Source: a virus. Taken from it: a DNA stretch of 35,586 nt. Where the stretch lies: IMG/VR virus record IMGVR_UViG_3300033066_002009, positions 72,961-108,546 of that record; one strand, 5' to 3'. A program made the translations under genes and the position numbers. The notes below the pieces were generated by a model, which saw only the letters and a program-made list of their open reading frames with translations, had not been told where the DNA came from and did no database searches. Below are positions 4,758 to 34,621 of the stretch, in pieces. Within the stretch, counting starts at the first letter, position 1. Every line of letters starts with the position of its first letter.

Positions 4758-5143
4758 GGAGCCACCGATCCAGGGTTTCCAGTATCCGAGGTTGCAAAGT
4801 TACTATCATTCGCGGTGAACGCTCGGGCAATCGTACTACGTTGCCGTACGCCAGCGTCGGCGGGGTCTCCCCTGACAGCCCCGGCCCCGCCAGTAAATCC
4901 GGCGCCCGCCATGCCTTCCTGTGCTGCCATTTTACCGATTGACGGCAGTTTCATGCTGGCTGACGCGGTGAGCGGATTTTTAGGTATGGCGGCGCCCATA
5001 CCCGACGTAGCCGGGGCTTTAGGCATACTGGCAGGGGGCGGTAGGCCCTGAGTGTTGATTCCGACGCCCTTAAGCGACGGGGCCGCCAGACCAAACTTAC
5101 TTAGGACGTCTACTGCGGCCGCCTCATAGGAGTTCCGCAGCAC
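4754..5143 (-). CDS. G/A-rich small protein with the shared N-terminal motif (129 aa)
   Basis: N-terminus is MLRNSYEAAAVDVLSKFGLAAPSL. Confidence 0.5.
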   Translation of the reverse strand: MLRNSYEAAAVDVLSKFGLAAPSLKGVGINTQGLPPPASMPKAPATSGMGAAIPKNPLTASASMKLPSIGKMAAQEGMAGAGFTGGAGAVRGDPADAGVRQRSTIARAFTANDSNFATSDTGNPGSVAP

Positions 5144-5146
5144 AGC

Positions 5147-5344
5147 TTACTTGCGGAGCTTAGCCGCCAGTGAAGACAGTGAAGACGGGTCTACTGTTGC
5201 GGCCTTCTCAGCGGGGGCGGGCGGCGCGTCAAATAGCCCAAGTTCCGCCGCGGCCTTCTCAACTTCTTCGGCGCTTCCGTAGCCATAGTGCTTGAGAGCC
5301 GCGTTTACACCGCGCTGGTGAGCGATTTCAATCGGAGTTGCCAT
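5147..5344 (-). CDS. Small protein (65 aa) with a diverged copy of the N-terminal motif
   Basis: Carries ...AHQRGVNAALKHYGYGSA. Confidence 0.4.
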   Translation of the reverse strand: MATPIEIAHQRGVNAALKHYGYGSAEEVEKAAAELGLFDAPPAPAEKAATVDPSSLSSLAAKLRK

Positions 5345-5356
5345 TGTCTTACTCTC

Positions 5357-5641
5357 CTATCCAAAGTTCTGTTCACTATAACCGCCAGCCAATCCTGGGG
5401 CTAGATGATCGATGTCTGAAAGATTCCAAAGGTCATCGACAGCGCCCTTGGCCTTTGCTTGAGCGGCCGGGTCTGTCGGGCTCATTGACGGCCTTCCAGC
5501 GTACGGAATCAACGCCGTTCCACTGGAAAGTGTATCACCCGGCGGCTGGACGCCATGGCGGGCACCGAGCACGGCGTCAGCCATTTTATAGCGTACCAGA
5601 GCTGTCATAGCCCCTGTATTATAGGCTTGATTGAGCGTCAT
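5357..5641 (-). CDS. Small protein with the shared N-terminal motif (94 aa)
   Basis: N-terminus is MTLNQAYNTGAMTALVRYKMADAV. ATGA overlap with the upstream gene. Confidence 0.5.
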   Translation of the reverse strand: MTLNQAYNTGAMTALVRYKMADAVLGARHGVQPPGDTLSSGTALIPYAGRPSMSPTDPAAQAKAKGAVDDLWNLSDIDHLAPGLAGGYSEQNFG

Positions 5642-6108
5642 CGATTGAACCTTGCAACGCTACGATATCCGGATCCGAGACTGTTGTACGCCGCTTCCAT
5701 GTTGTTCTGCGTCTTGATCCCGCGTACCAGCTCATCCCATTCTTCCTTGAGAAGGCGGGCAAGCTGGGCATACGCCGCTTGCTTGTCATCAATACCGATT
5801 GGCGCAATGTCTCCATCTTGATACGTCGCTTGGTTCCGGATCTGAAGGAACGTTTCCGACATCATCAAGAATCGACAAGTCCCAAGTAGGAGGACGTACT
5901 TGTTTGGAAACGTGGAGGCTGTAAAGCGCGTCTGAGGCGTAACGGCGTTGAACGCTTCCGCGGCCATCTCTGCCGCGAGGTTTAGCTCGCTGTCGGTGAA
6001 TTGAACGTTCGCCAGGAGGATGTTGTTCTCCGCCTTGTCACGGAGAAACATGCGCACTTGGTCATTGGTAACGACAACTGGAGTCGTTGGAGTGCCGGTG
6101 ACAGGCAT
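5638..6108 (-). CDS. Hypothetical protein (156 aa)
   Basis: ORF in the operon, overlap-coupled to both neighbours. Confidence 0.55.
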   Translation of the reverse strand: MPVTGTPTTPVVVTNDQVRMFLRDKAENNILLANVQFTDSELNLAAEMAAEAFNAVTPQTRFTASTFPNKYVLLLGTCRFLMMSETFLQIRNQATYQDGDIAPIGIDDKQAAYAQLARLLKEEWDELVRGIKTQNNMEAAYNSLGSGYRSVARFNR

Positions 6109-7592
6109 TACTTGGTCTCCTGATTCTGCTGTTCCATAAGTGCCCTGAATTGCTGAATCAGTGATTCCTTGTCAGCACCAAGTTGCGCCAGGTACTCATC
6201 AACTGATTCTCCTGGCTTCTTCCAGCCCCAATTCTCGAGCGTTCCTTTTGGCGGCCGAGTTGCTAGGTATCGTTCAATCTTAACAGACCGCTCGTTTTCC
6301 GGAAGGCTGTCGTGGCTCTTAAAACGGATTCCACGCCCCTCTACCTGCTTGATCTTCTCTTCGTTCCAGTGCGGCTCAAGCATCTGCATTAGCCGCGTTC
6401 CCTTGAGGTCTAGGCCCTCGCCGCCCGCCGATGAAAGTAGTAGCGCCCGTAGCTTGCCCGCGTTGTAGTCCTTTACGAGCTGATCCCGCTCACCGTGCGG
6501 CATCTGACCTGTAAATTCGCCATATGGGATATTTGCTTCCTGTAGTCGCCGCTTGTATGGATTGATTCCGGCGTCTAGGAAGTTCGAATAGATTACGGCC
6601 CGCATGTTCGGGTTGGTTTTGATGCCTTGCTGCAGGTGGTTGAACGCTTCTTGAATTTTCGGCTCCTCGGGTGAGCCTTCAGAAATGTAGGGCCCCGTGG
6701 AGTTCGCGCTTTGACGAGCGCCTGACAAAAATGCGTTCAACTGTTTTGCTTCTCGCTTAGACGGAGGTAGGCCGTGCTTGACCTTGTAAGCGACCCACCA
6801 AGGCGCTTTGTGAAAGAGCGTGTCGTAAACATCGAGCTGCTCCGCTGACATCGGAACTTTAACGTCTTCCCGCTCAACAGTTGGGAAGCCTTCCGTCGAT
6901 CCCGGGTGAAAGTCGACCCACTTGTCGAAGACAGACTTTAGCTCTTTGGTCCGCTTCGGATTGATCTCTGGCCGGACACCCGGGTCCGCGCCAAGCAGGG
7001 ATCCGATAAAGCCAGGGGAGACTGGTTTGTCTACAATGTAGCGGCTGCTAAATACCGCGGGATCTAGGGGTAGTACGTTATCGTGCGCGGCAAGGTCGAC
7101 GAGTGCCGAGATGTCGGAAGGGTGGTTGTAAAACGGTGACGCGGTAAGCAGCAGACGCTTTCCTGCTTGAGATTTTGCCAGCGCCTGAAAGGTGGCCGAC
7201 GACGGATCCCTGGCGCGGTGTGCTTCGTCAACAATCGTAAGAGGCGTCTTGAAGGGCTTACCTTTCATGGCAACATCTTGCATTGAACGTACGTTCAATT
7301 GCTGTCCGCCTCGAATGTGGTTGTCTTGTTCCTTCTTTAGATTGGCCTTGAGAGCCGCTGGAACGATGGCCGTACCTGCCATGCCCAGATCATCCTGGGC
7401 GCCAAGAGCGGTTAGTGTCTTCCCTGATCCTAGTCCGTGGACGACGACCAATCCGGGTTGATCTGGTTGGCGAATACGGTCAGAGACACGAAGCTGGTGA
7501 GGCTTGCGTTCTGTTGTTACGTCGGCAAGCTTGACTAGCCCTAAACGAGATAGGCTAGCCGCGTATCCGTCGTTGTACGAGGCGCGAAGCAT
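6108..7592 (-). CDS. SNF2/DEAH-box superfamily-2 ATPase/helicase with the shared N-terminal motif (494 aa)
   Basis: Walker A GLGSGKT, DEAH box VDEAHR, motif III LLLTASP, and helicase-C motifs SAGGEGLDL and QVEGRGIR. N-terminus is MLRASYNDGYAASLSRLGLVKLAD. Confidence 0.75.
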   Translation of the reverse strand: MLRASYNDGYAASLSRLGLVKLADVTTERKPHQLRVSDRIRQPDQPGLVVVHGLGSGKTLTALGAQDDLGMAGTAIVPAALKANLKKEQDNHIRGGQQLNVRSMQDVAMKGKPFKTPLTIVDEAHRARDPSSATFQALAKSQAGKRLLLTASPFYNHPSDISALVDLAAHDNVLPLDPAVFSSRYIVDKPVSPGFIGSLLGADPGVRPEINPKRTKELKSVFDKWVDFHPGSTEGFPTVEREDVKVPMSAEQLDVYDTLFHKAPWWVAYKVKHGLPPSKREAKQLNAFLSGARQSANSTGPYISEGSPEEPKIQEAFNHLQQGIKTNPNMRAVIYSNFLDAGINPYKRRLQEANIPYGEFTGQMPHGERDQLVKDYNAGKLRALLLSSAGGEGLDLKGTRLMQMLEPHWNEEKIKQVEGRGIRFKSHDSLPENERSVKIERYLATRPPKGTLENWGWKKPGESVDEYLAQLGADKESLIQQFRALMEQQNQETK

Positions 7593-7604
7593 CCCCCGAC
7601 AACA

Positions 7605-8051
7605 TCACTTGTACATGGAGCGTTCAAGGTGCCCGACAACCCTGGCGACCTGCGCGCCACCTCCGGCCGAGGTAACCAATTTTAGCCCCTGATTGGTGAG
7701 AAGCGTCATTCGGAATGACGCGCCGTCTAGGTGTACATAAAGAACACCAGTTTGCGCATTAATGAGTATGGTCTCTGCCGTAATCTCGGCGCCATTTGCG
7801 TCTAGGTTCACTAGATATAGACTTACGTCGCTTGCTGCGCCTAGTGAGACACTGAATTCGGTTACAAGTACGGGCTCTCCGGTTTGCCACTTGAACAAAC
7901 CGCCACCGTTTCCACCGGGAACCGGGTATTTGTACGTACCATTAGCAAATGTCGGTGTCCCGCTTGGCGCTGCCCCTGTGAAGTGAGATGCGGCGGCTAC
8001 CCGCTGTTGGATTGCAGTTGAGATCGAACCTGAGTCAAGAGTTACGGCCAT
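7605..8051 (-). CDS. Hypothetical beta-rich virion protein (148 aa)
   Basis: ORF in the structural operon. Confidence 0.55.
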   Translation of the reverse strand: MAVTLDSGSISTAIQQRVAAASHFTGAAPSGTPTFANGTYKYPVPGGNGGGLFKWQTGEPVLVTEFSVSLGAASDVSLYLVNLDANGAEITAETILINAQTGVLYVHLDGASFRMTLLTNQGLKLVTSAGGGAQVARVVGHLERSMYK

Positions 8052-8058
8052 GTGCTCC

Positions 8059-8340
8059 TCATGCGATTACTTCCCGTGTATCCGGGCCGTAGTAGTTTGG
8101 TAATTCAAATCGGATTGTGTACGTAAATCCAGGTTCTACCAATGCTGCGTCTTGCCAACGCCCATCCGCCTTCGTCATTGTAAACGCTACAGGTGTCCCC
8201 AAGTTCCGAGCGTCATAGTCGGACTTGCGATAGATGCGCACCTGAGCACCTGAGATGGGGCTTCCACCCGGTGTCAGGTATCGCAGAGCGTCGATCGACC
8301 CGTAGTCGTGGTCGATTTGTACGGTGTTGGTGAACGGCAT
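8059..8340 (-). CDS. Hypothetical small virion protein (93 aa)
   Basis: ORF in the operon. Confidence 0.5.
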   Translation of the reverse strand: MPFTNTVQIDHDYGSIDALRYLTPGGSPISGAQVRIYRKSDYDARNLGTPVAFTMTKADGRWQDAALVEPGFTYTIRFELPNYYGPDTREVIA

Positions 8341-8364
8341 TCCACCGTAATTATAGACTAGCCA

Positions 8365-8685
8365 TTATTTTTTTCTCGAGGTCTTTGGGTCCGTCGTACC
8401 CTTGACGCCTGCGTCAACGGGCTCTTTGGCAACCGTTGGTGGAGATTCTACGACAGGTTTTGGCACCACTACAATTGGTTGAACTGGCCGGCTATCGAGC
8501 CATGCGGGCGGTCCTGCCGTCATGAACTTGTTAACTAGTGGATGTGCAAGTACCGATTCACTGCATTCTCGCTCACACCCGGGCATGCCTTCTGGATAGA
8601 GTATGACACGAACGTCGTTGACATCCTTTACATCGTAAAGATCCATCATTCCGCGAGTTTTATTGACGAGGATAACGTTTCCCAA
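8365..8685 (-). CDS. Hypothetical protein with a P/V-rich C-terminal half (106 aa)
   Basis: First ORF downstream of the capsid-gene terminator. Confidence 0.5.
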   Translation of the reverse strand: MGNVILVNKTRGMMDLYDVKDVNDVRVILYPEGMPGCERECSESVLAHPLVNKFMTAGPPAWLDSRPVQPIVVVPKPVVESPPTVAKEPVDAGVKGTTDPKTSRKK

Positions 8686-8696
8686 GTTTAGCTCCT

Positions 8697-8725
8697 TTGC
8701 GGCATCTTATCACTTTTCATATTAG
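8697..8725 (+). promoter_or_regulatory. Sigma70-like promoter candidate for the opposite-strand cassette: TTGCGG, 17-nt spacer, TATTAG
   Basis: Read directly: -35-like box at 8697-8702 and -10-like box at 8720-8725. The fit to consensus is imperfect. Confidence 0.3.
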
Positions 8726-8747
8726 GTACAAGTATGTAGGAGGCCCC

Positions 8748-9122
8748 ATGCTGCCCGATTTCAACGAACTTGGAGTGTTCCAGAAGTTGCCTGCAGACGT
8801 GCAACATCAGATGGCCCTGATGTGGCGGGCATTCGAGCGGTCCCGCGGACCCGTCGTACGGTTCGTGATTGGGCATTATTTCAAGAAACATGTCTTCGCG
8901 GATGGAAGTAGATGCGCTGTTTGCGTCTGCCCGCCCCACAGGAACCCCGAGGACTGGGCGCAGCACCATGTCGACAGCTACTTCCTGGACCTGTTTGCGG
9001 AGCAGGACGACGGCATGTCCTCCTGCTTCGAGCAGTTCCCCTGGGAACACGCACAGTGGGAATATCGGAACCGAAGGTCGTTCGACGTCCACAAGACGGT
9101 GAGTGGTTGGACGACGTTTTGA
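8748..9122 (+). CDS. Opposite-strand accessory ORF, Cys/His-rich, function unknown (124 aa)
   Basis: Perfect SD AGGAGG lies 5 nt before the ATG at 8748. Contains CAVCVCPPH...HH. Ends 4 nt before the bidirectional terminator. This is the only rightward gene inside the leftward block. Confidence 0.55.
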   Translation: MLPDFNELGVFQKLPADVQHQMALMWRAFERSRGPVVRFVIGHYFKKHVFADGSRCAVCVCPPHRNPEDWAQHHVDSYFLDLFAEQDDGMSSCFEQFPWEHAQWEYRNRRSFDVHKTVSGWTTF

Positions 9123-18110: not shown

Positions 18111-21024
18111 TGCCGCTCATACCCTTGAGGACGTTAGCGTTCTGGCTCAGACGGAGAACCAGATCACCCATGTCTCGGTGAGTTGTCAGAAGCTTGTCTT
18201 CAAGCTCTGAATAGCCCTCTTCACCAATTTCAGTCTTAAGGGCACTCTCCTGCATCCACATTGTGAGAATAATTCTCGCGAGGTTGTCTAGGGCCTTTTC
18301 AAGGTTCGGAACGTACTGACTGACGAGTTCCTTGACCATAGGAGACTGCGCCAAAGCGGAGACCGCAGCTGCGTCGAATACGTCTCCGTTTGCCAGCTGT
18401 GCAGCTTGTCCCAAGAATTGCGGATTAATCTGCTGCTCGAGCATGTGGTTGTTAAATCCATCCTCCGACATCATGGCCTGCGGCGGCCCGCCCATCATCG
18501 ATGGATCCTGGCCCATTCCAGACATTCCGCCGCCCATGCCCATCGAAGGATCGGCACCCATCGGGCCAATCGGACTCTGGGACATATTTGGGTCCATCAT
18601 GCTGCCCATCTGAGGCATCTGCATGCCAGGAGCACCCCCCATCATCGAAGGGTCCATGCTTCCCTGCGGGGGCATTCCACCCATCGTCGACGGGTCCATA
18701 CCGCCCATTTGCGGAGAAGGACCTGGGTACATCGGCTGACCCATGCCCGATGGTTGCTGCGGCTGTCCCATAGGGGCGCCAGTCGCCATGTTAACCGACG
18801 GAGGCGGGGCACCCATGGCTTGGGTTTGAACGGACGGCATAGGCGCCGCACCACCCGCAATTTCCTGAGATCTGGCAGCGATCTGCTGCACAAGCATCAT
18901 CTTCTCAGTGAGCTTTTGGATTTCCTGCTCAATCTGCTGAGACGCTTCCATAGCTGCTAGGTCAGTGGGAGAGGGTGGCGGAGGCGCCATTGGAGCACCG
19001 CCCATCATTGATGGATCACCGCCCATTGACGGGTCCATGGAAGGGTCTCCTCCCATGGAAGGATCATCACCGCCCGCCATAGGGTCACCGCCGCCGCTAC
19101 CAGGAGGTCCATCCTTCTTCGGAGGAGCCTTCTTCTTGTCCCCCCCACTATCCTTCTTCTTCGAAGAATCCTCGTCCCCCGCTCGTTTTTCGAGCTTGGT
19201 CCGCGCCATCCGGATTTGATATGGCGCAGCGACGATAAACTGCGCGATGCCGTCAGAGGCTGCCTTTTCGAGGATGGCTTCTGATTCTTCAACCGTCAAA
19301 TTGAGGCCGCCTGCTAGGTAGCGAAGGGCCGAAATCTTATCGACAGCCTGAGTTCCATTGACAGAGAACTGTCCGTGGCCGGCATTCTTTACTGCGGACT
19401 TCTGTGCACCAACAGACAGCAAAGACGAGACTGTCGCGTGTGTTAGATCCATCGCAGAAGTGAACAGGTCACGGGCGTAGACCCGGTCTTTTAGTGGCAC
19501 CCACGCGAAATCGGCGGGTACGTAAGTGATGTTAGAGAACTGCGGCATCCAGATAGAGCCGAACGCGTTCGCAGGATCGGTTACCAGGGTCTTCTCTTCT
19601 CCCCAGCCTTCTGCGCTCGTGGCCAAGATGCGGCGTACGCCGTCTGAGCCTGTCGTAACTGATTTGATGTTGAGAGGGCAAGTGGCCTGAAATGACGTGC
19701 CCTTTGCGCGAACAAAGAAGCCAAGTCCCGTCTTTGGTGCCGCTCCGTCCGTCACACCGAACAGTGAAGAGTAGAGCTTTCCGCCGGAAAGATCATCTGC
19801 AATTGATGCGCGGCCAACAAGGCGGTCGACCATTGAATAATCGCCGTTGCCGAAAACCGCCATGTAACGCGGAGTATCGTGGGGGGTAAGCTCGTCTGCG
19901 AGATTCGGGCGGCCCTCCGGATATACGCGAGTGTTGACACGGCCATGAACCTCGTGATCGTGATGGTCAACACCTCCCGGGGTTGGATCTGTATAGGAAT
20001 TGTCAACCATCGGATTGCGCGCCGGAACGACCGGCTTTCGGCCGTAGCGGGTCGCATGGCCAAACAGGTTCACCGGGTTCGGCATTACAAATGCCGTAGC
20101 CTCGCTCATGTCTGTTTTGTAGAGGTTGTACACACCGGGCGTGGTGGGTTCTACGTATTGCTCGTACGGCTGCACCTTCATAGCCACATTGTGAAACGCC
20201 CGCTCGTCTTTCGCCGCGTACCCCTTCAGCTTCACACCAGAGTACGCCTCGCCGGAACGTTCTCCGAAGATGCGCTTAAACTCGGAAGGCTTTGTGTCCT
20301 TGTCCGCAATCCAAAGAGCGCCGCCATAATTCTGCTTTGCGGCAACCTTCTCTTGTCGAAGAACTACAGCATCTCGAAGTGCTGAAATACCGTAGATCGC
20401 AACAGCGGTCTTCAGAAGGTCTGGGTTCCGCTCGAGAGTATTCACGAACGCTTGCTTAACGCGATTCGGGGCGCGGTCAAGAAACCCTAGAAGCATTGGA
20501 CGGTACTCTTGCGCCGTTTTTTCAATGCCGCCGATGTATGCCGCGTAGGAGAACCTTCCAGTGACGGGAGGCACTACGACGTTTCGAATGTCTACATCGG
20601 AGTAAAGGGTTTCGGGAGTCTTTACGCCCTTGCCCAATTCTCCCATAGACATCTTATCAATCTCGTCCAGCCACCCCTTTGTAAGGGGCAAAAAGACGTT
20701 TAGCGACTTGTGGTAGACAATCTCTAGGGGCTTGGTGTTGTTGTCCGCCATCACGACGGGGATGTACAGTGTCTGGCCCTGGCGCTGGATAATAAACGCA
20801 CCTACGCCACTGCCTTCATCGATGTCAGTGTTGATCACCCTGAACGTGACCACGTTTTCGACAAGGTCCGGCAGCTTAGAAAGAAGAAGGTTGTAGGCGG
20901 CCTGTGAAAACCCCTGCTCAAACAGGGCGGTTACCTGGTCGGGGCCCGCGTCCTGTTGCATCTGCATCTGCTGGGTCTTCGGCGACATCGCCATGGGCCC
21001 CATCTGCGGCATCGGCATCGTCAA
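18097..21024 (-). CDS. Large virion protein with a ~290-aa M/G/P/Q-rich low-complexity domain (975 aa). It could be a portal or an internal-core protein.
   Basis: The N-terminal ~620 aa look globular. MGGDPSM-type repeats follow, then a helical C-terminal tail. It sits just downstream of an intrinsic terminator and has a GAGG SD. Confidence 0.65.
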   Translation of the reverse strand: MTMPMPQMGPMAMSPKTQQMQMQQDAGPDQVTALFEQGFSQAAYNLLLSKLPDLVENVVTFRVINTDIDEGSGVGAFIIQRQGQTLYIPVVMADNNTKPLEIVYHKSLNVFLPLTKGWLDEIDKMSMGELGKGVKTPETLYSDVDIRNVVVPPVTGRFSYAAYIGGIEKTAQEYRPMLLGFLDRAPNRVKQAFVNTLERNPDLLKTAVAIYGISALRDAVVLRQEKVAAKQNYGGALWIADKDTKPSEFKRIFGERSGEAYSGVKLKGYAAKDERAFHNVAMKVQPYEQYVEPTTPGVYNLYKTDMSEATAFVMPNPVNLFGHATRYGRKPVVPARNPMVDNSYTDPTPGGVDHHDHEVHGRVNTRVYPEGRPNLADELTPHDTPRYMAVFGNGDYSMVDRLVGRASIADDLSGGKLYSSLFGVTDGAAPKTGLGFFVRAKGTSFQATCPLNIKSVTTGSDGVRRILATSAEGWGEEKTLVTDPANAFGSIWMPQFSNITYVPADFAWVPLKDRVYARDLFTSAMDLTHATVSSLLSVGAQKSAVKNAGHGQFSVNGTQAVDKISALRYLAGGLNLTVEESEAILEKAASDGIAQFIVAAPYQIRMARTKLEKRAGDEDSSKKKDSGGDKKKAPPKKDGPPGSGGGDPMAGGDDPSMGGDPSMDPSMGGDPSMMGGAPMAPPPPSPTDLAAMEASQQIEQEIQKLTEKMMLVQQIAARSQEIAGGAAPMPSVQTQAMGAPPPSVNMATGAPMGQPQQPSGMGQPMYPGPSPQMGGMDPSTMGGMPPQGSMDPSMMGGAPGMQMPQMGSMMDPNMSQSPIGPMGADPSMGMGGGMSGMGQDPSMMGGPPQAMMSEDGFNNHMLEQQINPQFLGQAAQLANGDVFDAAAVSALAQSPMVKELVSQYVPNLEKALDNLARIILTMWMQESALKTEIGEEGYSELEDKLLTTHRDMGDLVLRLSQNANVLKGMSGNARS
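18440..19200. repeat. Imperfect short tandem repeats that encode the M/G/P/S/Q low-complexity tract
   Basis: Repeated ccgcccat/ccatcgatgg-like units. This also explains the long His/Arg-rich antisense ORFs in the track. Confidence 0.5.
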
Positions 21025-21115: not shown

Positions 21116-22411
21116 TTAGGCGCGAGAGGCTGCAGCGTTTACGATTGCCCTAAGCCGGAGGCCTAGGTCACTCGCCTCCTTCTTGTCATCGTCCTTCTTG
21201 CACTCACAAGGCGACTTACCACACTTCTCGCACTTGTCGTCCTTCTTCTCGGAGTCCTTCTTCTCAGGCTCCTTCTCACTCATGTTGGCCATGAAGGCCG
21301 GGAGTCCGCCGTCCTCCGCCTTCTTCTGATTGGCCTTGGCGCCATCATAGCCCGAGTATCCACTGGTGTACTTCGGGGAGCCTGGAACGAACTCCGGATT
21401 TGCGTTAGCAGCGGTCTTCGACGCGATCTTCTGGTGGAGCCCGTGGATGTAGTGGGCCTTCTCAGCAACGTCTAGATCCATCATCGCCTGAATGTGACCG
21501 ATCTTCTCGTCTTCACCTAGACCATTGGGAAGATACGGCACGATTTCCCGGGCAGCCTTGCGGAACACTTCAACATATCCCGCGGCCTTGGCCGAATGCT
21601 GTGTCAACGAGTTGCTGCCGTCGACGGAGCGGCTGGGCCCGTTGGGCATCGCCATTTCCTTGCCCACGATGGCAGGGCCGGTGACGAGGCCCGGAATTGC
21701 GCCGGGTGCACCCTGATGCGGCAGAACCGCGTAACCAGCTGGGCGGGCAGCCAGGTCCATCTTGCCTTCGGCAGTGGTGGGCTCCTTGTTGCCCTTGTCG
21801 CCCCCTTCAATGTTCGAGCCCATTGCAATCTTGCGCAGGGCCTCAGCAAGTGAAGAGGTCTTGGACGCGTCAATCACCGTGTTATCGCCAGACGGCGAAT
21901 TAGCGGGTGCCGCAGGATGGGGCTCTTCCTTGCCGACGGCGCCAGGGCGCGTGTCGACCTCAGTCTTGCCCGCACCGCCAGCTCCGTTCTCGCCCTGTGC
22001 GGCGTAGCCGTCCGGACGTGCCTTCTCGTCCATCTTGCCTTCCGCGGTAGTGCGCTCGGTGTTGCCCTTGTCGCCGCCTTCATAGTTCGAGCCCTCAGCG
22101 AGCTTCATCAAGTGGAGCGCATGAACCTGCGCAACCTTTGACAGATCCTGCTGAGACGCAACCTTAGCGGTCGGGCCCGGCCGGTAGCCCTGCTGGGCCA
22201 GTTCCGCCGAAGCGTCGATAAGGTGCTCGGCGATCTTGGCCGTCACTTCACGTGACACACTGGCCGCCTGGAAGCCGTTCATTACATCAAAATCGACGTT
22301 GTCGGCGATGTAATCCGCGATCTTCGCGGCTGAATCTTCGTCGGGGTATGCAGCGTGCCCGGCCTGTACCAGCGCACCCTGAATTCCGCGAACGTATGCC
22401 TTCTTGAACAT
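21116..22411 (-). CDS. N-motif protein with a ~91-aa internal tandem duplication and a Lys/Cys-rich tail (about 431 aa from MFKKAY)
   Basis: The repeat units are GSNYEGGDKGNTERTTAEGKMD... and GSNIEGGDKGNKEPTTAEGKMD.... The C-terminus carries CEKCGKSPCECK. SD GGGAGA precedes the ATG at 22411. Confidence 0.6.
   Translation of the reverse strand: MFKKAYVRGIQGALVQAGHAAYPDEDSAAKIADYIADNVDFDVMNGFQAASVSREVTAKIAEHLIDASAELAQQGYRPGPTAKVASQQDLSKVAQVHALHLMKLAEGSNYEGGDKGNTERTTAEGKMDEKARPDGYAAQGENGAGGAGKTEVDTRPGAVGKEEPHPAAPANSPSGDNTVIDASKTSSLAEALRKIAMGSNIEGGDKGNKEPTTAEGKMDLAARPAGYAVLPHQGAPGAIPGLVTGPAIVGKEMAMPNGPSRSVDGSNSLTQHSAKAAGYVEVFRKAAREIVPYLPNGLGEDEKIGHIQAMMDLDVAEKAHYIHGLHQKIASKTAANANPEFVPGSPKYTSGYSGYDGAKANQKKAEDGGLPAFMANMSEKEPEKKDSEKKDDKCEKCGKSPCECKKDDDKKEASDLGLRLRAIVNAAASRA
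21646..22111. repeat. Intragenic tandem duplication of about 275 bp, two copies
   Basis: The DNA copies cccttgtcgcccccttcaatgttcgagcc (~21781) and cccttgtcgccgccttcatagttcgagcc (~22061) lie ~280 bp apart. Confidence 0.5.
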
Positions 22412-25972: not shown

Positions 25973-28900
25973 TTATAGTTCGCTCTTCTTGTTAATGTCG
26001 ATCGGGTCGGAGAGGTTGATTTCTCCTCGGTGGTACGCCGCAAGAGCATGGCCCTGTGATTCAAAGCTCTTTGAAGCCATGGTGCCCGCAGGCTGTGTTG
26101 CACGGTGAAGCCCGATAACTGCTTCCATGTCGGGGGCCACGTTAAGTGGGTCTGACTTCTTCTCGCTAAAAATAAGCTTTGATAGCGTCATGTTCTTGAC
26201 GTCTTCAATGCCCTTGAGGGTTACAGGCGCGTGCACTTGAATTGCGTCACCATCGTAGTCCGCGTTCATCCCGCGCTCTGCGAACGGATTCAGGCGAATG
26301 GTCTTGCCCGACGTCAACTTGGGATACGCGCCAATTACTCCGAACCGATGTAGTGTAGGCGCGCGGTTAACGACGACCGGGCGCTCTTTCGTTTCGATCA
26401 GAAGCTCTTCTCGCGCCAAGGGGTTCTTTTCCTCGACCATGCGCTGTGCGTCAAGAGCAGGGTAGCCCTTCCGTACAAGACGCCCGATCAAGAACTTAGA
26501 GTACATCTTCCAGAGCATGTCCTCCGGGATTCCGATCTCATCCATGTCTAGTGTCGGGTCTGGGGCGATCGTTGCGCGCCCCGATACGTCCTGTTGCCGC
26601 ATCATAATTTTCGACTGGAAGAACCCGTTCTTTGGCCGAGTACCGTTAATCTGCATCAAGAAGCCTTGAGCGTTTCGCTTCTTCGCTTTGGGGCTCTGCG
26701 GCTCTTCCGTTCCAAACACGGACCCAACGGCCTTGTAGACGTGCATACGAATTGGTGCTAGCTCTGTGTTAGGCAGTCCAGCTTCGTCTAGTTCTTGAAG
26801 CTTCTTATTCGCCAAGAAGGCGTCTGTGTAGAGCAGATTCACGGGCTGTGTCAGTAGTCGCCCATCCTTCAGGGGCACAATCTGCCGCATGATAGGCGGG
26901 ATTACCGGAACCTTACTGAGGATGTACGCCTTATCAGGCGTTAACCCTTGGGACTTTAGCGCCGTCAGATACTTGATCTGCTTTACGGCACTGTCGAGGC
27001 TAGGGCCTTTCAACGTCTTACTCTGAGCCTTCAGCTCTTCGATTTTCTTGTCCATGTCGATTTTAGACAAGGCGTCTTTGAAATAAGCCCCTCCCTGCTG
27101 GGAATGGAAATCCTCGAATTGCCGCTGTGTTAGGCTCAATAGACGCCGAACAGGCTCCTCAAATACCGGGTTGACGATCGGCTCGTGAAGCTGCATGTGT
27201 GCCCACTTCGTCCCGGTCAAACCTCCGGTCAATACCGGGTCGAAGAGACCGCCCTTTTCAGGCATCAGGTTTTTAGCCTTGATGTGGTAGGCATTTTCTA
27301 CAGGACCAGATGACATCTTTTCAATGTCAGCGTCCGTCATCGGTCCCAGCGTCAACCGTTGACCGTCTTTGTTCACTTTGACGCCGGCACCTTCCAGCAT
27401 TGTCAGGAATTTGTCATACGCGAATGTCGTTTTAGGCGACGGCACCGGCAGCCCCAGCTGAATAGCTCGCCAGAATTCGTCGTTCTTTTGGCTCTTAATT
27501 GACGCGGCTTCCCGCAAAACGTTTCTCGCGTTGTGTGCGACAAGTGCATCAAACTCCATCTTACCGATGCCCTTCGCACCCTCGTCGCCGCCTCGGCTAG
27601 GTTGCTGGTTAATGTCGTATTTTTCGGGACCGTGCGCAGACCAGTTAGTGTAGGCGCTCTTGAACAGCTTAAGAATGTAAGAACGGCCCACGAATACACC
27701 GGGGATGCTTTTCCCCGTAATCGGGTCGTAGACTGTCTCCTTGTCCTTAAGGCCGTGTTCCTTGAGCAGCCCCTTTACCCATTTCACATTGTCGCGGTCT
27801 TCAAAATTATCGATGGCGATAGGCTTGCCGGTTTTTTCTGCAACCTTGCCCAGTGCCGCTTCGAGAACCTGCGCCGGGTTTACACGGCTAATGATGCCGG
27901 CAGAGGTGAAGAGCACGTCAATGGGATTGCCCTTTTCATCCTTCACCATCTGCGCGTCAGGTACGATTTTTGCGATTACTCCCTTGTTGCCGAAGCGTCC
28001 TGAGAGCTTGTCACCGACATTGATGGTTTCCCATGTCTTAACCGTTACGGAGATGACGTGAGGCGTCTTGACCACGTCAATTACTTCTCCAGGTGTTTCA
28101 TGGTGCCAGTCTTCAACCTCTTCCCTGTAAGGCGTCACAAGAGAGCGCGACAGCTTACCGAGCAACGCCGCGTCTCCGGTGATCTGGCCTTTCCGCGCAG
28201 CCACAATAACGGGGTCACCGGGCTCGATCTTTGTTCCCGGCTTAACAACGCCTTCGGAGTCCAGATTGTCATACTGACGAGCCTTGTAGCGCATTCCGAA
28301 GTACGTACGGTGAAGCTCTTTGTCGTTTAGGATGTCGTTATCCCGCCGCATATCAATACGATACATGTGCTCGGAAACGAGTTTATCTGCAGCACCTTGT
28401 GAAACGACAATTCCGTCGTTGGAGTTAAGCCCCCGATAGGCCATATATCCAACGGACATATTCTTGCCGAGGCACAGGGTATCGTTCTTGGTGAAGTTAG
28501 ACTCCGCCAGGGGTTGACCCGCTTTTACATCTTCACCCGCCCGCACCTTGATGGTGTTGTGCAGGTAGGTCTTCGCGGCGAGCGGGAAGTGGTCGTCATA
28601 GTGGAGCTTGATCAGCCCGCTATCCGCCGCTGCATATTTATCTACGTGATCGTTGTAGAACCACTCCCCGTCTCGATCGGAAGATGCCTTCGTGGCTTTC
28701 GGACGGATGTAAATCCAGTCATCGTCAATTCGCTCGATAGTCCCGTCCACTGGAGATGTAGGCACCACCTTTAGCGCCATTTCCTGCTCTACCGTGGTCC
28801 CCGGCCACCAGGACTTGACCTGTACGTGCGGGGGCTCCCGGTGAACCAGCGGCAGCGCCTGCGACTGGTGCTTGGAAGCCATGACGATGCGGTTACCCTG

Positions 28901-30445
28901 CATGCCGTTGAGGAACGGCAAGAGGTTCGTCGTTGGGCCGAAGAGATTGGCTACATGGGGAACCTGATAGTCAACTTCATGCGGGCCGACGTCTACGATC
29001 TCTCCGTCTTTCATCGCGTGAACAACAGGGAGGCCCGGGGCGCCATTTCCGACCTTTTCCGTCGGAAAAGCCACTACTTTTTCAGCGACCTCGTTTGGCC
29101 GCAAGTATTCAATTTCACCGGTCTTCACGTTTCGAAGAGGGGTGTATAGATTTCCCTTATCGTCTCGCCGGGTTGCCAATGCAGTTCGAATATCGATGCC
29201 CGTCTTGAAGCTCTCTGGCGTTCTTGACGGATCCATGATTGCGAAGTGCGTAGGGTGCAGCTGCCGCGCTTCCATTGGAACGGCACGCTCACTTGAAATA
29301 CCGCCCTCACCCATGGGAGTGACCTTGCACATCTGGTCCATCAATTCCATGGGGTTGATCTGCTCGGGCTTCTGAGCACGCTTTGAAGTAGACAGGAACG
29401 TGATTACTCCGCGCGTAAACGGCGAGGCTGGTACTGCCTTTCTCATGTCACCACGAGACGCCTCCAGCTTAATGCCGATCTTCGTCTTCAGGGCCTTGGC
29501 ATCGAGGCCAATACGCTCTTTGATAGAGTCGTCTACACCGTGGAAGGTCTTGAACTCGAGGCTATCTCTATCGTCAGTGTCGATGGCATTACGGTGAACA
29601 TCTAGCAATTTCTTGGCCGCGATCAATAAAGCCATCGGTGTAACGTGGTCAAACGCCTGCCCCAACGTGCGCTTCGTGACGTCGGGGTCCATCCGCGTCA
29701 TTTCATAGTAACGATGAAGCTGCCGAACGCGTTCTTCGTGAGTAGCAGCAGGGGCTGCACCTGCCGGCTGAATCCAGTAACCCAGCTTGTCGTACAGTTT
29801 TTGTACGTGGCGCTCCGTATTTTTTTCCGTTGCTACCTTATTTACGTCAGCCACCTGGCTACCCCACTGAGTAGAAATGTCTTGGTGGGGGACGCCAAGC
29901 GCCCGCAACACAGGGTACAACGGGATCTTTGTAGTCTTGTGTTCCAGCCGCAGCACGCCCTCTTCCGGATCCATTGCAATTCGGAAGTTGTCACCGCGCG
30001 CCAGGTTGAACGCCGCTTCTAGATCTTCATTGCCGCGCTTTCGTGTGTAGACGCCCGGCTTTGTACGAATCTGATTTGCGATGTTGTATTCGTTGCCGTC
30101 AATGATGAACGTATGCCGCGGTGTAAAGTACGGCAGGTGCATCAAGGTAAAGTTCTTTGCCTGCGATACAACAGCGCCCTGTGTGTCCTTTACGAGGATG
30201 TCTCCGACCACACGTTCGTGGAGCGTCCGAGCTTCAAGGATTGCGCGCTTTTGGTCGCGGGACGAAAACGACTCCTCCTGGACGCGCGGGTTCGTCAATT
30301 CCACCGTGAAGTTTCTCGACTTCATAGGGAAAGCAGCTTGTACGCCCTCTAGGGCCTTGCGTCGGATGTGCGCTCGGTGGTCTGTGGCGTCCATAAGGAC
30401 TGGTCGGATGCCGGCGGACTCCGCGTCACGTTCTGAAATTGGCAT
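25973..30445 (-). CDS. Fused RNA polymerase subunit (1490 aa): a beta-like N-terminal ~950 aa joined to the N-terminal ~540 aa of beta'
   Basis: Beta-like motifs are FIIDGNEYNIANQIRTKPGVY and GRFGNKGVIAKIVPD...NPAQVLEAALGK. Beta'-N motifs are AHMQLHEPIVNPVF, VPVIPPIMRQIVPLKDGR, GRATIAPDP, NRAPTLHRFGV and NADYDGDAIQVHAPV. The beta' N-terminal zinc-finger cysteines are not visible. Confidence 0.9.
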   Translation of the reverse strand: MPISERDAESAGIRPVLMDATDHRAHIRRKALEGVQAAFPMKSRNFTVELTNPRVQEESFSSRDQKRAILEARTLHERVVGDILVKDTQGAVVSQAKNFTLMHLPYFTPRHTFIIDGNEYNIANQIRTKPGVYTRKRGNEDLEAAFNLARGDNFRIAMDPEEGVLRLEHKTTKIPLYPVLRALGVPHQDISTQWGSQVADVNKVATEKNTERHVQKLYDKLGYWIQPAGAAPAATHEERVRQLHRYYEMTRMDPDVTKRTLGQAFDHVTPMALLIAAKKLLDVHRNAIDTDDRDSLEFKTFHGVDDSIKERIGLDAKALKTKIGIKLEASRGDMRKAVPASPFTRGVITFLSTSKRAQKPEQINPMELMDQMCKVTPMGEGGISSERAVPMEARQLHPTHFAIMDPSRTPESFKTGIDIRTALATRRDDKGNLYTPLRNVKTGEIEYLRPNEVAEKVVAFPTEKVGNGAPGLPVVHAMKDGEIVDVGPHEVDYQVPHVANLFGPTTNLLPFLNGMQGNRIVMASKHQSQALPLVHREPPHVQVKSWWPGTTVEQEMALKVVPTSPVDGTIERIDDDWIYIRPKATKASSDRDGEWFYNDHVDKYAAADSGLIKLHYDDHFPLAAKTYLHNTIKVRAGEDVKAGQPLAESNFTKNDTLCLGKNMSVGYMAYRGLNSNDGIVVSQGAADKLVSEHMYRIDMRRDNDILNDKELHRTYFGMRYKARQYDNLDSEGVVKPGTKIEPGDPVIVAARKGQITGDAALLGKLSRSLVTPYREEVEDWHHETPGEVIDVVKTPHVISVTVKTWETINVGDKLSGRFGNKGVIAKIVPDAQMVKDEKGNPIDVLFTSAGIISRVNPAQVLEAALGKVAEKTGKPIAIDNFEDRDNVKWVKGLLKEHGLKDKETVYDPITGKSIPGVFVGRSYILKLFKSAYTNWSAHGPEKYDINQQPSRGGDEGAKGIGKMEFDALVAHNARNVLREAASIKSQKNDEFWRAIQLGLPVPSPKTTFAYDKFLTMLEGAGVKVNKDGQRLTLGPMTDADIEKMSSGPVENAYHIKAKNLMPEKGGLFDPVLTGGLTGTKWAHMQLHEPIVNPVFEEPVRRLLSLTQRQFEDFHSQQGGAYFKDALSKIDMDKKIEELKAQSKTLKGPSLDSAVKQIKYLTALKSQGLTPDKAYILSKVPVIPPIMRQIVPLKDGRLLTQPVNLLYTDAFLANKKLQELDEAGLPNTELAPIRMHVYKAVGSVFGTEEPQSPKAKKRNAQGFLMQINGTRPKNGFFQSKIMMRQQDVSGRATIAPDPTLDMDEIGIPEDMLWKMYSKFLIGRLVRKGYPALDAQRMVEEKNPLAREELLIETKERPVVVNRAPTLHRFGVIGAYPKLTSGKTIRLNPFAERGMNADYDGDAIQVHAPVTLKGIEDVKNMTLSKLIFSEKKSDPLNVAPDMEAVIGLHRATQPAGTMASKSFESQGHALAAYHRGEINLSDPIDINKKSEL

Positions 30446-30465
30446 GCGTAAGTAATAACACGTAG

Positions 30466-30480
30466 TTGGTAAAAGAGAAT
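30466..30480 (+). promoter_or_regulatory. Promoter-like motif copy A: TTGGTAAAAGAGAAT
   Basis: One of four plus-strand copies of GGTAAAAGA, all intergenic. It lies 21 nt from the divergent RNAP start codon. Confidence 0.45.
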
Positions 30481-30885
30481 GGAGTCGTCGCTGTCGTGCA
30501 CGCTACACCTGTCTTTCACTCGAGGTAAACCCTCGAGGGACGTGGTGGCGGCCGGCGGGGAACAGGAGGTGCGCCTTAGGAAGGTTTGACGGTGCGCCGC
30601 CACTCCTGGGATTGCTGATCCCAGGAGGGCGGTGAGCGGAATGAATCTCGGCCCCTTCCGCGGCCTGTAGTCCACCGTCAGGAGGGGCGTTAAGACGGAC
30701 CGAGAGCGCCCATGAAAACTGAACGCGAACAACAGGCCCCTCAGGGAGGGGTCAAGAGGGCACCGCGAAGATGGTGCCCAGGGCCAACAGCGCCCTCGCC
30801 TTGTGCAGCACAGGGGTCCATCCCAAAACACCCAAGCGGCCCCCTAGAGGGCTCAGACCCACGGCTAGGTCAGGGCCGCTTTTTT
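30481..30885 (+). ncRNA. Candidate structured non-coding RNA of about 400 nt, class unknown
   Basis: Bracketed by motif A and an intrinsic terminator. Perfect hairpins include CTCGAGG/CCTCGAG, CTCCTGGGA/TCCCAGGAG and GGGCACC/GGTGCCC. Stops occur in all frames, and the only 59-codon ORF has poor codon usage and no properly spaced SD. Confidence 0.4.
30835..30885 (+). terminator. Rho-independent terminator on the plus strand
   Basis: AGCGGCCC and GGGCCGCT form an 8-bp stem with an inner CCTAG/CTAGG pairing, followed by TTTTTT. Confidence 0.6.
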
Positions 30886-30898
30886 GGGTAAAAGAGGG
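30884..30898 (+). promoter_or_regulatory. Promoter-like motif copy B: TTGGGTAAAAGAGGG
   Basis: Lies immediately after the terminator and 24 nt before the SD/ATG of a small TM-protein gene. Confidence 0.45.
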
Positions 30899-30918
30899 AA
30901 ACTACATGGAGGCCACCC

Positions 30919-31074
30919 ATGCGCGTGCAGCTCTGGAAGAAGAAACCACAGCACCCGGCTGTTTCGCTGATCACGAGCTTCCTGCTGCTGGCAGCGGTGC
31001 TCGTGATCGCGAAAGAAGTGGGGGAGACCCTTCGACATGCGCTTGATGTCTGGTCCGAAGAGGAGCAGCAGTGA
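30919..31074 (+). CDS. Small single-pass membrane protein (51 aa)
   Basis: Found by hand translation: MRVQLWKKKPQHPAVSLITSFLLLAAVLVIAKEVGETLRHALDVWSEEEQQ. SD GGAGG lies 6 nt upstream. GTGA overlap with the next gene. Its frame and start differ from the track ORF 30771-31046. Confidence 0.5.
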   Translation: MRVQLWKKKPQHPAVSLITSFLLLAAVLVIAKEVGETLRHALDVWSEEEQQ

Positions 31075-31385
31075 TCTCCGCGGCCTCCAAGGAGATCCTC
31101 CTCAACGGAGCGGTATCGGGCGCCCTGGCCGTGCTCACAAGCAGGCCGGGGGACGGCCGGAAGGGCTACAAGAAAGGGCGCGCAACGGGAGTAATTATGG
31201 GGGTCGCAGGAACCCTGGTTCTCTTCGGCGTGCTGCGGTACGTCGCCCTCAACACCCAGATCGGACAGAAGGTTGTTCGCGCGGTTCAGCGGGAGCGGGA
31301 GATATACCGCGAGTTTCGCGCCGAATGGCTCCGGGAAGCACGTCTCCGTGAGGTTCTTCTCCAGGAGGAGACCGAGGCGGCGTGA
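31071..31385 (+). CDS. Small membrane protein with two predicted TM helices and a charged C-terminus (104 aa)
   Basis: GTG start with SD GAGGAG. Hydrophobic segments are LLNGAVSGALAVLTS and GVIMGVAGTLVLFGVLRYVAL. GC3 is very high. Confidence 0.6.
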   Translation: MISAASKEILLNGAVSGALAVLTSRPGDGRKGYKKGRATGVIMGVAGTLVLFGVLRYVALNTQIGQKVVRAVQREREIYREFRAEWLREARLREVLLQEETEAA

Positions 31386-31406
31386 CCCGCCGTTCACCTG
31401 CTAGAG

Positions 31407-31441
31407 GCACTCCGCGGTGGGGAGGGGGAGTGCTTCTTTTT
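31407..31441. terminator. Intrinsic terminator between convergent genes
   Basis: GCACTCC, a 12-nt loop, GGAGTGC, then TTCTTTTTA. The T-tract is on the plus strand. Confidence 0.6.
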
Positions 31442-31865
31442 AGCGTCGACGTCCCCTTGGTGGGGCATCTGCATCGCGCTCTTCTTCTGCCAGCCGGGCT
31501 TCTCGTTCAGGATTTCTACGCCGGGTCAGCCATGTTAGGAGGATTCGATACTCTCCCGTGAGGGGTGTGAAGCTCCTTTCTTCCGCCCGAGGCAGCGCGT
31601 CTCCTCGAAGGCACTGGTCCTGAACAGCGTTGTAAGCCTCTTCATCACCCGGCAAGGTGAACACCTGACAGTGGTGTGAATAGTCCCATTCAACAGGTGT
31701 TGCCTTGCCTTCGACGTCCATGTCTACAAGACGGTGATTCCCGAGTGGCGGTTGGCCCCCTGTGCCAAAGGCGCTTCCAGCGTCGGCTCCTCGCGCGCCG
31801 CTGAAAAGATTTGGCATGCTGTTGACCTTCTCGAGCAGCTCAGTGAAGGATTCGTCCTTTGCCAT
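31440..31865 (-). CDS. Hypothetical protein (141 aa)
   Basis: AAGGA SD upstream of the ATG. Ordinary codon usage. Confidence 0.5.
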   Translation of the reverse strand: MAKDESFTELLEKVNSMPNLFSGARGADAGSAFGTGGQPPLGNHRLVDMDVEGKATPVEWDYSHHCQVFTLPGDEEAYNAVQDQCLRGDALPRAEERSFTPLTGEYRILLTWLTRRRNPEREARLAEEERDADAPPRGRRR

Positions 31866-34462: not shown

Positions 34463-34472
34463 CCCCGGATTC

Positions 34473-34486
34473 CGGGTAAAAGAATG
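34473..34486 (+). promoter_or_regulatory. Degenerate promoter-like motif copy D: GGGTAAAAGAATG
   Basis: Shares GGTAAAAGA but lacks the flanking TTGG and GAG. It lies directly upstream of the large hairpin. Confidence 0.3.
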
Positions 34487-34488
34487 TG

Positions 34489-34573
34489 CACGCCCACCCC
34501 CTTGATCGTACGCGTCTGCTCGACGAGGCTGGCCCGTGTGAGGGGGTGGGTGTGCTCTTCTTTTGGTGTTTAT
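34489..34573 (+). terminator. Long hairpin plus U-rich tract, read as an intrinsic terminator or attenuator
   Basis: CACGCCCACCCCCT and AGGGGGTGGGTGTG form a 14-bp stem with one G.U pair and a 38-nt loop, followed by CTCTTCTTTTGGTGTTTAT. It sits between the upstream operon and the SNF2 gene. Confidence 0.5.
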
Positions 34574-34597
34574 CCGGTAGACAAAGGAGGCGTTTCC

Positions 34598-34621
34598 ATG
34601 GTAAACGCGAAGAACTGATGG
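34598..34621 (+). CDS. Six-codon upstream ORF (MVNAKN) that overlaps the SNF2 start as TGATG
   Basis: SD AAAGGAGG lies 6 nt before this ATG and 26 nt before the SNF2 ATG. That spacing suggests coupled re-initiation. Confidence 0.25.

Follow-up and report, generated by a model that had tools for sequence, protein, structure and literature searches.

In phage lambda the PR' promoter is followed by the 6S leader, the terminator tR' and the holin gene, and the 6S leader is not known to depend on a conserved fold. The put RNAs of phage HK022, of approximately 70 nucleotides (nt) and two stem-loops, act in cis to make RNA polymerase terminator-resistant, the pRNA of phage phi29 is a phage-encoded structured packaging RNA, and morons are independent promoter-gene-terminator units inserted between conserved genes. 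Here we describe an element of approximately 404 nt (positions 30481–30886, plus strand) in a 35.6-kb stretch of a phage-like contig (IMG/VR record IMGVR_UViG_3300033066_002009; 35,586 nt, hereafter the window), that lies beside the gene for a fused β/β′ RNA polymerase (RNAP) and has one distinct homolog, on metagenomic contig L001. We put at roughly 0.5 the probability that this element is a self-contained gene for a structured non-coding RNA. Orphan candidates for large structured RNAs have generally been sought in long, GC-rich intergenic regions (PMC8723152, PMC5737381, PMC12286853); the RNA of the window is a new family within this established general class, and its known distribution is very narrow.

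Like the orphan RNAs GOLLD and ROOL, the RNA is non-coding, occupies a long (473-nt) GC-rich intergenic region in a phage context, and has covarying helices and conserved loops. Unlike these, it is smaller, is found on two contigs, has a 3' half that forms a plain string of hairpins rather than an ornate structure, and matches neither in sequence or structure. The locus resembles the lambda PR'-6S region in its order of predicted promoter, non-coding transcript of a few hundred nt, strong terminator and small membrane-protein genes on the same strand, but neither a Q-like antiterminator nor a qut site was identified here, and a second promoter-like motif precedes the open reading frame (ORF). 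As for the phi29 pRNA, a promoter of its own is predicted, the portal region is adjacent, and complementary loops could allow loop-loop contacts; in contrast, the RNA is absent from most relatives, which still package DNA, and phi29 is a podovirus whereas the phage of the window is large and related to the myovirus Arash. Nothing of the phi29 pRNA type reached E ≤ 10 in our Rfam scans, whose library includes the phage pRNA model. With morons the locus shares a predicted promoter and terminator of its own, a deviant GC content and an insertion between genes that are adjacent in relatives, but the cassette opens with an RNA unit rather than a protein gene, and the promoter of this unit appears to be an old resident of the site rather than an import. 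The likeness to the put RNAs is one of layout only, a structured RNA between a phage promoter and a terminator, as the RNA of the window has approximately 400 nt and at least 11 helices; the lineage of the window is also unusual in its RNAP, with Arash packaging a multisubunit RNAP and a sigma factor (PMC10585845).

A conserved structured non-coding RNA

The RNAP has many metagenomic relatives, of which one is close (P0002, 80% amino acid identity, encoded on L001; L001, L002 and similar handles denote metagenomic contigs of RNAP relatives). L001 shows the same arrangement as the window: the start of the RNAP gene and, on the opposite strand, a promoter-like motif, approximately 404 nt of non-coding sequence, a terminator, a second motif, a 42-residue hydrophobic ORF and a further terminator. 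The RNA homolog is located at L001:2781–3184 on the minus strand, and the RNA is approximately 404 nt long in both phages. The elements in the window are the following.

30466–30477, plus strand: promoter-like motif TTGGTAAAAGAG of the extended −10 type (TGnTAAAAG), predicted start at approximately 30481–30483
30481–30886, plus strand: predicted structured non-coding RNA, approximately 404 nt, identified by the L001 homolog, the fold z-score and the absence of a conserved ORF and of an Rfam family
30489–30495 / 30588–30594, plus strand: helix H1 (CGCUGUC/GACGGUG), with two compensatory double changes relative to L001; contains G-U
30519–30525 / 30531–30537, plus strand: hairpin hp2 (CTCGAGG/CCTCGAG in DNA letters), with two compensatory double changes relative to L001
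30544–30549 / 30569–30575, plus strand: helix H2b (GGUGGC/GUGCGCC), identical in L001; contains G-U
30595–30601 / 30628–30634, plus strand: helix H3, carrying a compensatory change
30603–30612 / 30618–30627, plus strand: helix H4, a perfect 10-bp stem (CTCCTGGGAT/ATCCCAGGAG) with loop UUGCUGA
30636–30641 / 30656–30661, plus strand: helix H5, carrying a compensatory change, with an invariant 13-nt loop (UGAAUCUCGGCCC, 30642–30654); its 3' strand is placed one base to the right of the coordinate read-out
30685–30689 / 30707–30711, plus strand: helix H6 (GGGCG/CGCCC), which reads GAUCG/CGAUC in L001, two compensatory changes
30735–30753, plus strand: hairpin hp7
30758–30779, plus strand: hairpin hp8 (stem GGGCACC/GGTGCCC in DNA letters, 30758–30764 / 30773–30779)
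30780–30796, plus strand: hairpin hp9
30799–30815, plus strand: hairpin hp10
30834–30886, plus strand: intrinsic terminator with a 9-bp GC-rich stem base (AAGCGGCCC/GGGCCGCTT, 30834–30842 / 30873–30881), an irregular upper stem and six U residues
30885–30896, plus strand: second promoter-like motif TGGGTAAAAGAG, directly 3' of the terminator U-tract

The RNAP and portal proteins of the two phages are 80–86% identical, and four-fold degenerate sites are saturated between them (65 of 258 identical in RNAP, or 25%; 60 of 216 in the portal gene, or 28%). Pairwise identity of the RNA is 55% overall (the 78% 'mean column identity' reported by the alignment tool is not a pairwise value), approximately 41% over the 3' hairpins and 79% in the core at 30588–30668, which against the saturated four-fold sites indicates selection on the RNA. 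Blocks of 9–13 nt are conserved exactly: GAGTCGTCGCTG, ACTCCTGGGAT, GCTGATCCC, TGAATCTCGGCCC and CCCACGGCT. The GC content of the RNA is 64.3% (window, 55.7%) and that of its homolog 57.7% (L001, 45.5%), so that in two genomes 10 GC points apart the RNA lies 9–12 points above its surroundings; the small neighbouring ORF of L001 is genome-like.

The stretch is non-coding, as no reading frame is conserved between the window and L001. An earlier reading of the sequence alone (the sequence-only reading) had found no credible ORF here, and this is borne out: a 36-aa ORF (30479–30589) meets a stop after seven codons in L001, and a 59-aa ORF (30712–30891) has only MKxE in common with it. A 160-aa ORF on the minus strand (30349–30831), already taken to be spurious as it overlaps the RNAP start, lacks any true relative in a set of 1.84 billion representative proteins, the one match being false and repeat-driven.

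Folding of the window RNA gives z = −4.46 on the plus strand and −3.56 on the minus strand relative to shuffled sequences, and the L001 RNA gives −2.58 in sense and −0.72 in antisense orientation. After correction for GC content, five of the eight most stable plus-strand windows in the 35.6 kb lie around 30241–30916. The perfect hairpins noted from the sequence alone (hp2, H4 and hp8) and the intrinsic terminator are all present. Eleven helices are located at homologous positions in the two sequences; with H2b set aside, the other 10 comprise 60 pairs, of which 41 are unchanged, 3 show a one-sided wobble change and 16 a two-sided compensatory change. In the unedited MAFFT alignment RNAalifold reports 17 pairs changed on both sides, and a hand-anchored alignment recovers H1, hp2, H3-H4 and H5. 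Substitutions that keep pairs, as expected of a conserved structured RNA, are thus found between the two sequences.

In the 5' part H1 closes a junction that contains hp2 and H2b, and the segment with H3, H4 and H5 (30595–30661) is the most conserved core. The H6 loop sequence CCGAGA (30700–30705) is complementary to UCUCGG in the H5 loop (30646–30651) in both phages, and a loop-loop contact between H5 and H6 is possible. In the 3' part the stems of the two RNAs are unrelated (for instance GGGCACC/GGUGCCC in the window and GCCGAU/AUCGGC in L001), with eight compensatory changes in hp7–hp10, but the hairpins keep their offsets from the CAUGAAAA anchor to within 2–3 nt. All three hairpins of the minimum free energy (MFE) fold of the window were matched positionally, which was equalled by 1 of 2000 dinucleotide shuffles of the L001 segment. 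The L001 terminator likewise has the same position and a different stem, and keeps the same 9-nt loop block (CCCACGGCU, 30858–30866).

Nine G-U cells occur in the helices, which on the opposite strand would be A-C mismatches, and the terminator has its U-tract after the stem on the plus strand only. Together with the strand asymmetry of the z-scores and the GC content of the RNA, this points to the plus strand as the RNA, and the data support a functional, structured plus-strand RNA. The claim that a non-coding structured RNA unit lies between a promoter-like motif and a terminator is therefore upheld.

The repeated boxes on which the sequence-only reading had placed weight fared less well. 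Of the four reported CAGGAGG boxes three are exact (30563, 30622 and 30679, plus strand) and the fourth reads CAGGGAGG; the window as a whole contains 10 copies of CAGGAGG where 4.6 are expected. Both GGTGCGCC boxes are present (30568 and 30591), their number in the window corresponds to chance, and the notable feature is the nearness of the two copies only. In L001, the sole homolog, the CAGGAGG-type boxes read AAAGGGGG, CCGGAGAG and CCGTGTGG and the GGTGCGCC-type boxes GGTTCGCC and GGTGCACT, so that nothing favours a role as Shine-Dalgarno (SD) mimics that bind ribosomes or as iterons. A sponge of the CsrB/RsmZ type or an SD-mimic decoy was also rejected, as L001 does not keep the CAGGAGG and CAGGGAGG boxes and several of these are within stems; GGA motifs number 11 in the window RNA and 6 in the L001 RNA.

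Searches with the 81-nt core as covariance model R1 (the full alignment has 429 columns) and with nhmmer in 78 metagenomic loci of RNAP relatives detected the RNA in the window and L001 only. Blastn against 50,697 phage records gave no RNA homolog, five seed patterns in IMG/VR gave chance matches only (judged by eye, nhmmer or covariance model), and one seed pattern in GTDB genomes gave five matches, at chance level. Contig L109 (1212 nt) is identical to the window. When the RNAP N-terminus was used to look for close but fragmentary relatives, none was closer than 68%. The RNA family is thus known from two phages only.

In the whole window no Rfam 15 covariance model matched at the gathering threshold, in answer to the scan that the sequence-only reading had proposed. 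At E values up to 10, the locus and its L001 homolog gave weak, unrelated matches only (PVT1, MIR1144, sbcD and others), none common to both. RNase P, 6S, signal recognition particle (SRP) RNA, group I and II introns, riboswitches, T-box, GOLLD, ROOL, OLE, HEARO and the other Rfam 15 families gave no match; ARAGORN found no tRNA or transfer-messenger RNA (tmRNA) in the window, and the Rfam tmRNA model did not match at E up to 10. The earlier failure to match the element to tmRNA, RNase P, SRP or 6S RNA is in line with these results.

Two further resemblances were seen. A block, ATGAATCTCGGCCCCTTC, resembling the mini-ORF of L002 and the RNAP start of L021 was not above noise in blastn-short and was treated as chance. 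In two orthologous loci of Actinomycetota metagenome-assembled genomes (L097 1859–1879 and L098 905–925) the sequence GGAGTGAATCTCGGCCCGTTCCC is nearly identical to the H5 loop region; matches of this type are as numerous as expected by chance, and nothing else of L097 and L098 aligns.

The interval between p141 and RNAP and its promoter-like motifs

Almost every gene between 2 kb and 30.4 kb of the window is on the minus strand, the last being that for RNAP. Between it and the gene for a 141-residue protein (p141) lies a plus-strand island, made up of a 473-nt gap without a credible ORF (30446–30918) that contains the RNA, two small hydrophobic ORFs and a terminator.

25973–30445, minus strand: RNAP gene, fused β/β′, 1490 aa
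30446–30462, minus strand: RNAP upstream region without SD sequence; the ATG (30445) follows a TGTTATTAC box at a distance of 6 nt
30919–31074, plus strand: gene for a small predicted membrane protein, 51 aa
31071–31385, plus strand: gene for a small predicted membrane protein, 104 aa
31405–31443, plus strand: cassette-closing terminator, hairpin GAGGCACUCC...GGAGUGCUUC followed by five U residues, abutting the stop codon of the minus-strand p141 gene
31440–31865, minus strand: p141 gene, 141 aa
31885–33684, minus strand: portal gene

In L002, L003, approximately 25 metagenomic loci and the cultured Salmonella phage Arash, the portal, p141 and RNAP genes are contiguous and co-oriented, and the RNA is absent from the syntenic site. 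The absence from this site is what is expected of a moron-type insertion. The description of the element as divergent from the RNAP operon was correct but incomplete, as the unit is cargo that interrupts the portal-p141-RNAP string. The virions of Arash contain abundant RNAP subunits and sigma factor (PMC10585845).

The gap between p141 and RNAP keeps the sequence TGGTA(A/T)AAG in the window (30446–30477) and in L002, L003, L021, L036, L039, L043, L047, L059, L068, L077 and L090. In many relatives without the RNA its reverse complement, CTTTTACC, is found 10–50 nt ahead of the RNAP start. L036, L039, L059, L068 and L090 have the motif in front of a gene on the opposite strand that encodes a Cys-rich protein of 200–300 aa (no Pfam match). 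In L002 the motif is followed, likewise on the opposite strand, by a strong SD sequence and an ORF of 16 codons. In L021 the motif directly adjoins the SD sequence of RNAP, and a start on the sense strand would have no room. From the gene order in these contigs it follows that TGGTA(A/T)AAG reads away from RNAP. In L063 a variant, GGTATAAG, lies ahead of a different protein. We rejected CTTTTACC as the −35 element of a sense RNAP promoter, since it is 9–12 nt from a −10-like box, abuts the SD sequence in L021 and precedes opposite-strand genes. Judged from these contigs, the space between p141 and RNAP appears to be a conserved slot whose promoter points outward and whose cargo varies: one clade of distant relatives has a protein gene there, near relatives have nothing or a 16-codon stub, and L001 and the window have the RNA with one or two small membrane proteins.

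The motif is probably a promoter of the extended −10 type. Its exact form, GGTAAAAGAG, which the sequence-only reading had placed upstream of the RNA, is indeed found there (30468) and again at 30887 and 33715, each time ahead of a plus-strand unit, and a copy with one mismatch is present at 34475, all on the plus strand. The copies at 30468–30477 and 30887–30896 form an exact 10-nt direct repeat that flanks the RNA module at a distance of 419 nt, and recombination between two promoters of this class may account for an insertion or exchange of the RNA gene. The second motif reads GGGTATAAG in L001 and TTTTTTGGGTAAAAGAAC in L002, which lacks the RNA. We rejected the copy at 34475 as a promoter, as it forms the A-tract of a long hairpin that is followed by a U-tract. 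The surrounding segment (34463–34565, z = −5.1), between a 125-aa gene and a SNF2 helicase gene, consists of an A-tract, a 17-bp GC-rich hairpin and a U-tract, and looks like a bidirectional terminator.

On the RNAP side, a box lies back-to-back with the promoter motif of the RNA; it reads TGnTATTAC in the window (30443–30462, minus strand) and TGGTAATAC in L001 (L001 3195–3223). The absence of an SD sequence and the distance of 6 nt to the ATG suggest that the RNAP mRNA may be leaderless. The portal genes of L001 and L002 have a similar −10-like box 6–7 nt ahead of the ATG. The L001 RNAP (3221–8755) has 1844 aa, with an insertion of approximately 350 aa after '...INVGDKL' that is absent from the window RNAP and looks like an intein with a homing-endonuclease domain.

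The 51-aa ORF is preceded by the SD sequence GGAGG (30909–30913). Neither its product nor the 104-aa protein matches Pfam, PHROG or NCBIfam, and no homolog was found except in L109 (search with the 104-aa protein). At the equivalent spot L001 has the 42-aa hydrophobic ORF (L001 2617–2745); the small hydrophobic proteins 3' of the RNA are thus not homologous between the two phages, while the RNA itself is conserved. The 16-codon ORF of L002 weakly resembles the N-terminus of the 51-aa protein (VLQLSKRR and VQLWKKK).

Elsewhere in the window, a strong SD sequence (AGGAGG) is followed by a six-codon mini-ORF (34598–34618, within 34588–34621) whose TGA shares bases with the ATG (34619) of the SNF2-type helicase gene, an arrangement suggestive of translational coupling. 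Repeats inside large minus-strand genes at 18488–19018 and 21729–22105 (a 21-nt unit in four copies and a 104-nt unit in two, with 76% identity) probably correspond to repeated protein modules of structural proteins.

Alternative explanations and a proposed role

The main rival to a stand-alone RNA gene, which we regard as possible, is a cis-acting leader or attenuator of the genes at 30919–31385, in which the terminator would be read through under control of a ligand, a protein or antitermination of the put or Q type. In both phages a small hydrophobic ORF follows the RNA directly and in the same orientation (the terminator lies 34 nt ahead of the ATG in the window), RNA and ORF are present together in the two phages and absent together from the relatives, and the downstream proteins, short and with one or two hydrophobic segments, would resemble holins or toxins. 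Transcripts that read through could moreover refold, as an ACCCAAG block (30830–30836) is complementary to UUGGGU past the U-tract in both sequences. An attenuator would, however, have an antiterminator pairing exclusive of the terminator and no promoter in between. An inspection of the window and L001, which was not exhaustive, found no conserved pairing partner for the 5' arm of the terminator; models of riboswitches and the T-box gave no match; and the conserved promoter-like motif between terminator and ORF would bypass attenuation, the T-run and motif serving alone in L002. The small proteins also differ between the phages while the RNA is homologous. An antisense or transcriptional-interference module is unlikely: here the cassette would run head-on into read-through from portal and p141 and so uncouple or tune RNAP, through double-stranded RNA and RNase III or through collision. 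The genes for portal, p141 and RNAP are contiguous and co-oriented in relatives, with the cassette, which is on the opposite strand, separating p141 from RNAP in the window; the hairpin at 31405–31443 has a U-tract on the plus strand only, which makes minus-strand read-through plausible; and RNAP seems to have gained a promoter box of its own close to its ATG. Yet interference needs no conserved sequence or fold, whereas the core is 79% identical and the helices covary, and the terminator of the RNA, with an A-rich run upstream, may stop minus-strand transcription too.

Slightly less likely again is that the RNA is a working partner of the phage transcription machinery, either as a large put-like modifier of RNAP in cis or as a binder in trans of host RNAP, phage RNAP or a sigma factor; the back-to-back position of the slot and RNAP, and the promoter class shared with neighbouring plus-strand genes, are compatible with such a role and are not evidence for it. 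We consider it very improbable that the element acts as DNA, be it as an iteron origin or a packaging site, both of which the sequence-only reading had allowed, or as a set of protein-binding palindromes. The region does lie between divergent genes and near a minimum of the cumulative GC skew (close to 30 kb), and it has local repeats (three CAGGAGG, two GGTGCGCC) and several perfect palindromic stems. The turn in GC skew coincides, however, with the change of coding strand, the repeats are altered in L001, the helices use G-U pairs and their stability is strand-asymmetric. With 63–66% GC the region is the most GC-rich stretch of its neighbourhood, without an AT-rich unwinding element, and approximately 25 relatives that must still replicate and package do without it; the features of an iteron origin or pac site are thus not found. 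Equally improbable is a coding sequence or a relic of the gene for the Cys-rich protein of the slot. ORFs of 36, 59 and 160 aa exist and the slot holds a protein gene in five contigs, but no frame is kept and no protein relatives were found. The slot proteins show no similarity to the RNA region (tblastn E ≥ 0.9, profile search E ≥ 0.14), for which the relic was rejected, and a relic would not remain 79% identical where four-fold sites are saturated.

For the RNA as an independent unit argue the second conserved promoter-like motif between its terminator and the next ORF, together with the relatives, which keep each promoter type alone, and the intrinsic terminator at its 3' end, as expected of an independent small or non-coding RNA gene. 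Several points weigh on the other side. The evidence for promoter function of the motif is its position and conservation, and the copy at 34475, in the A-tract of a bidirectional-terminator-like hairpin, indicates that the motif is not always a promoter. Only two distinct sequences are available, which makes the fold provisional, and the MFE folds of the two RNAs differ in detail. Helix registration was partly by hand, which biases the count of zero broken pairs; the check for compensatory changes proposed by the sequence-only reading delivered 17 double changes in the unedited alignment, but an R-scape-type statistic is impossible with two sequences. The position directly upstream of a co-oriented membrane ORF also fits a cis-leader, and no binding partner or target was identified in this analysis.

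As a stand-alone gene, the RNA would be transcribed from approximately 7 nt past an extended −10-type promoter, TGGTAAAAG (30467–30475), of the slot class that the phage lineage appears to have retained and that is directed away from RNAP, and transcription would end at the strong intrinsic terminator at 30834–30885. The 5' domain (30481–30711), conserved in sequence, would comprise the H1-closed junction, the long H3-H4 hairpin, H5 with its invariant loop, H6 and the possible H5-H6 contact. Within it, the H5 loop, the H4 loop and the 5' single strand are likely the working part and may bind a protein or another nucleic acid, presumably in trans. The four 3' hairpins and the terminator, of which the shape alone would be conserved, probably provide a defined, nuclease-resistant 3' end. 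With its small membrane-protein gene or genes the RNA would travel as accessory, moron-like cargo, in opposite orientation within the portal-p141-RNAP string.

The practical weight of the finding is limited, with two uncultivated phages and no functional lead. Phage genomes are annotated nearly wholly for proteins, and stand-alone structured RNAs of several hundred nt are rare in them; the known large phage RNAs (pRNA, put, GOLLD and ROOL) do unusual things. The present case has clean boundaries, strong constraint at the nucleotide level, and a slot whose cargo switches between protein, nothing and RNA. If the RNA were a partner of RNAP, transcription would be shifted during infection. More generally, a partner of the RNA, if found, could reveal a new RNA-based way in which phages handle the gene expression of the host or their own.

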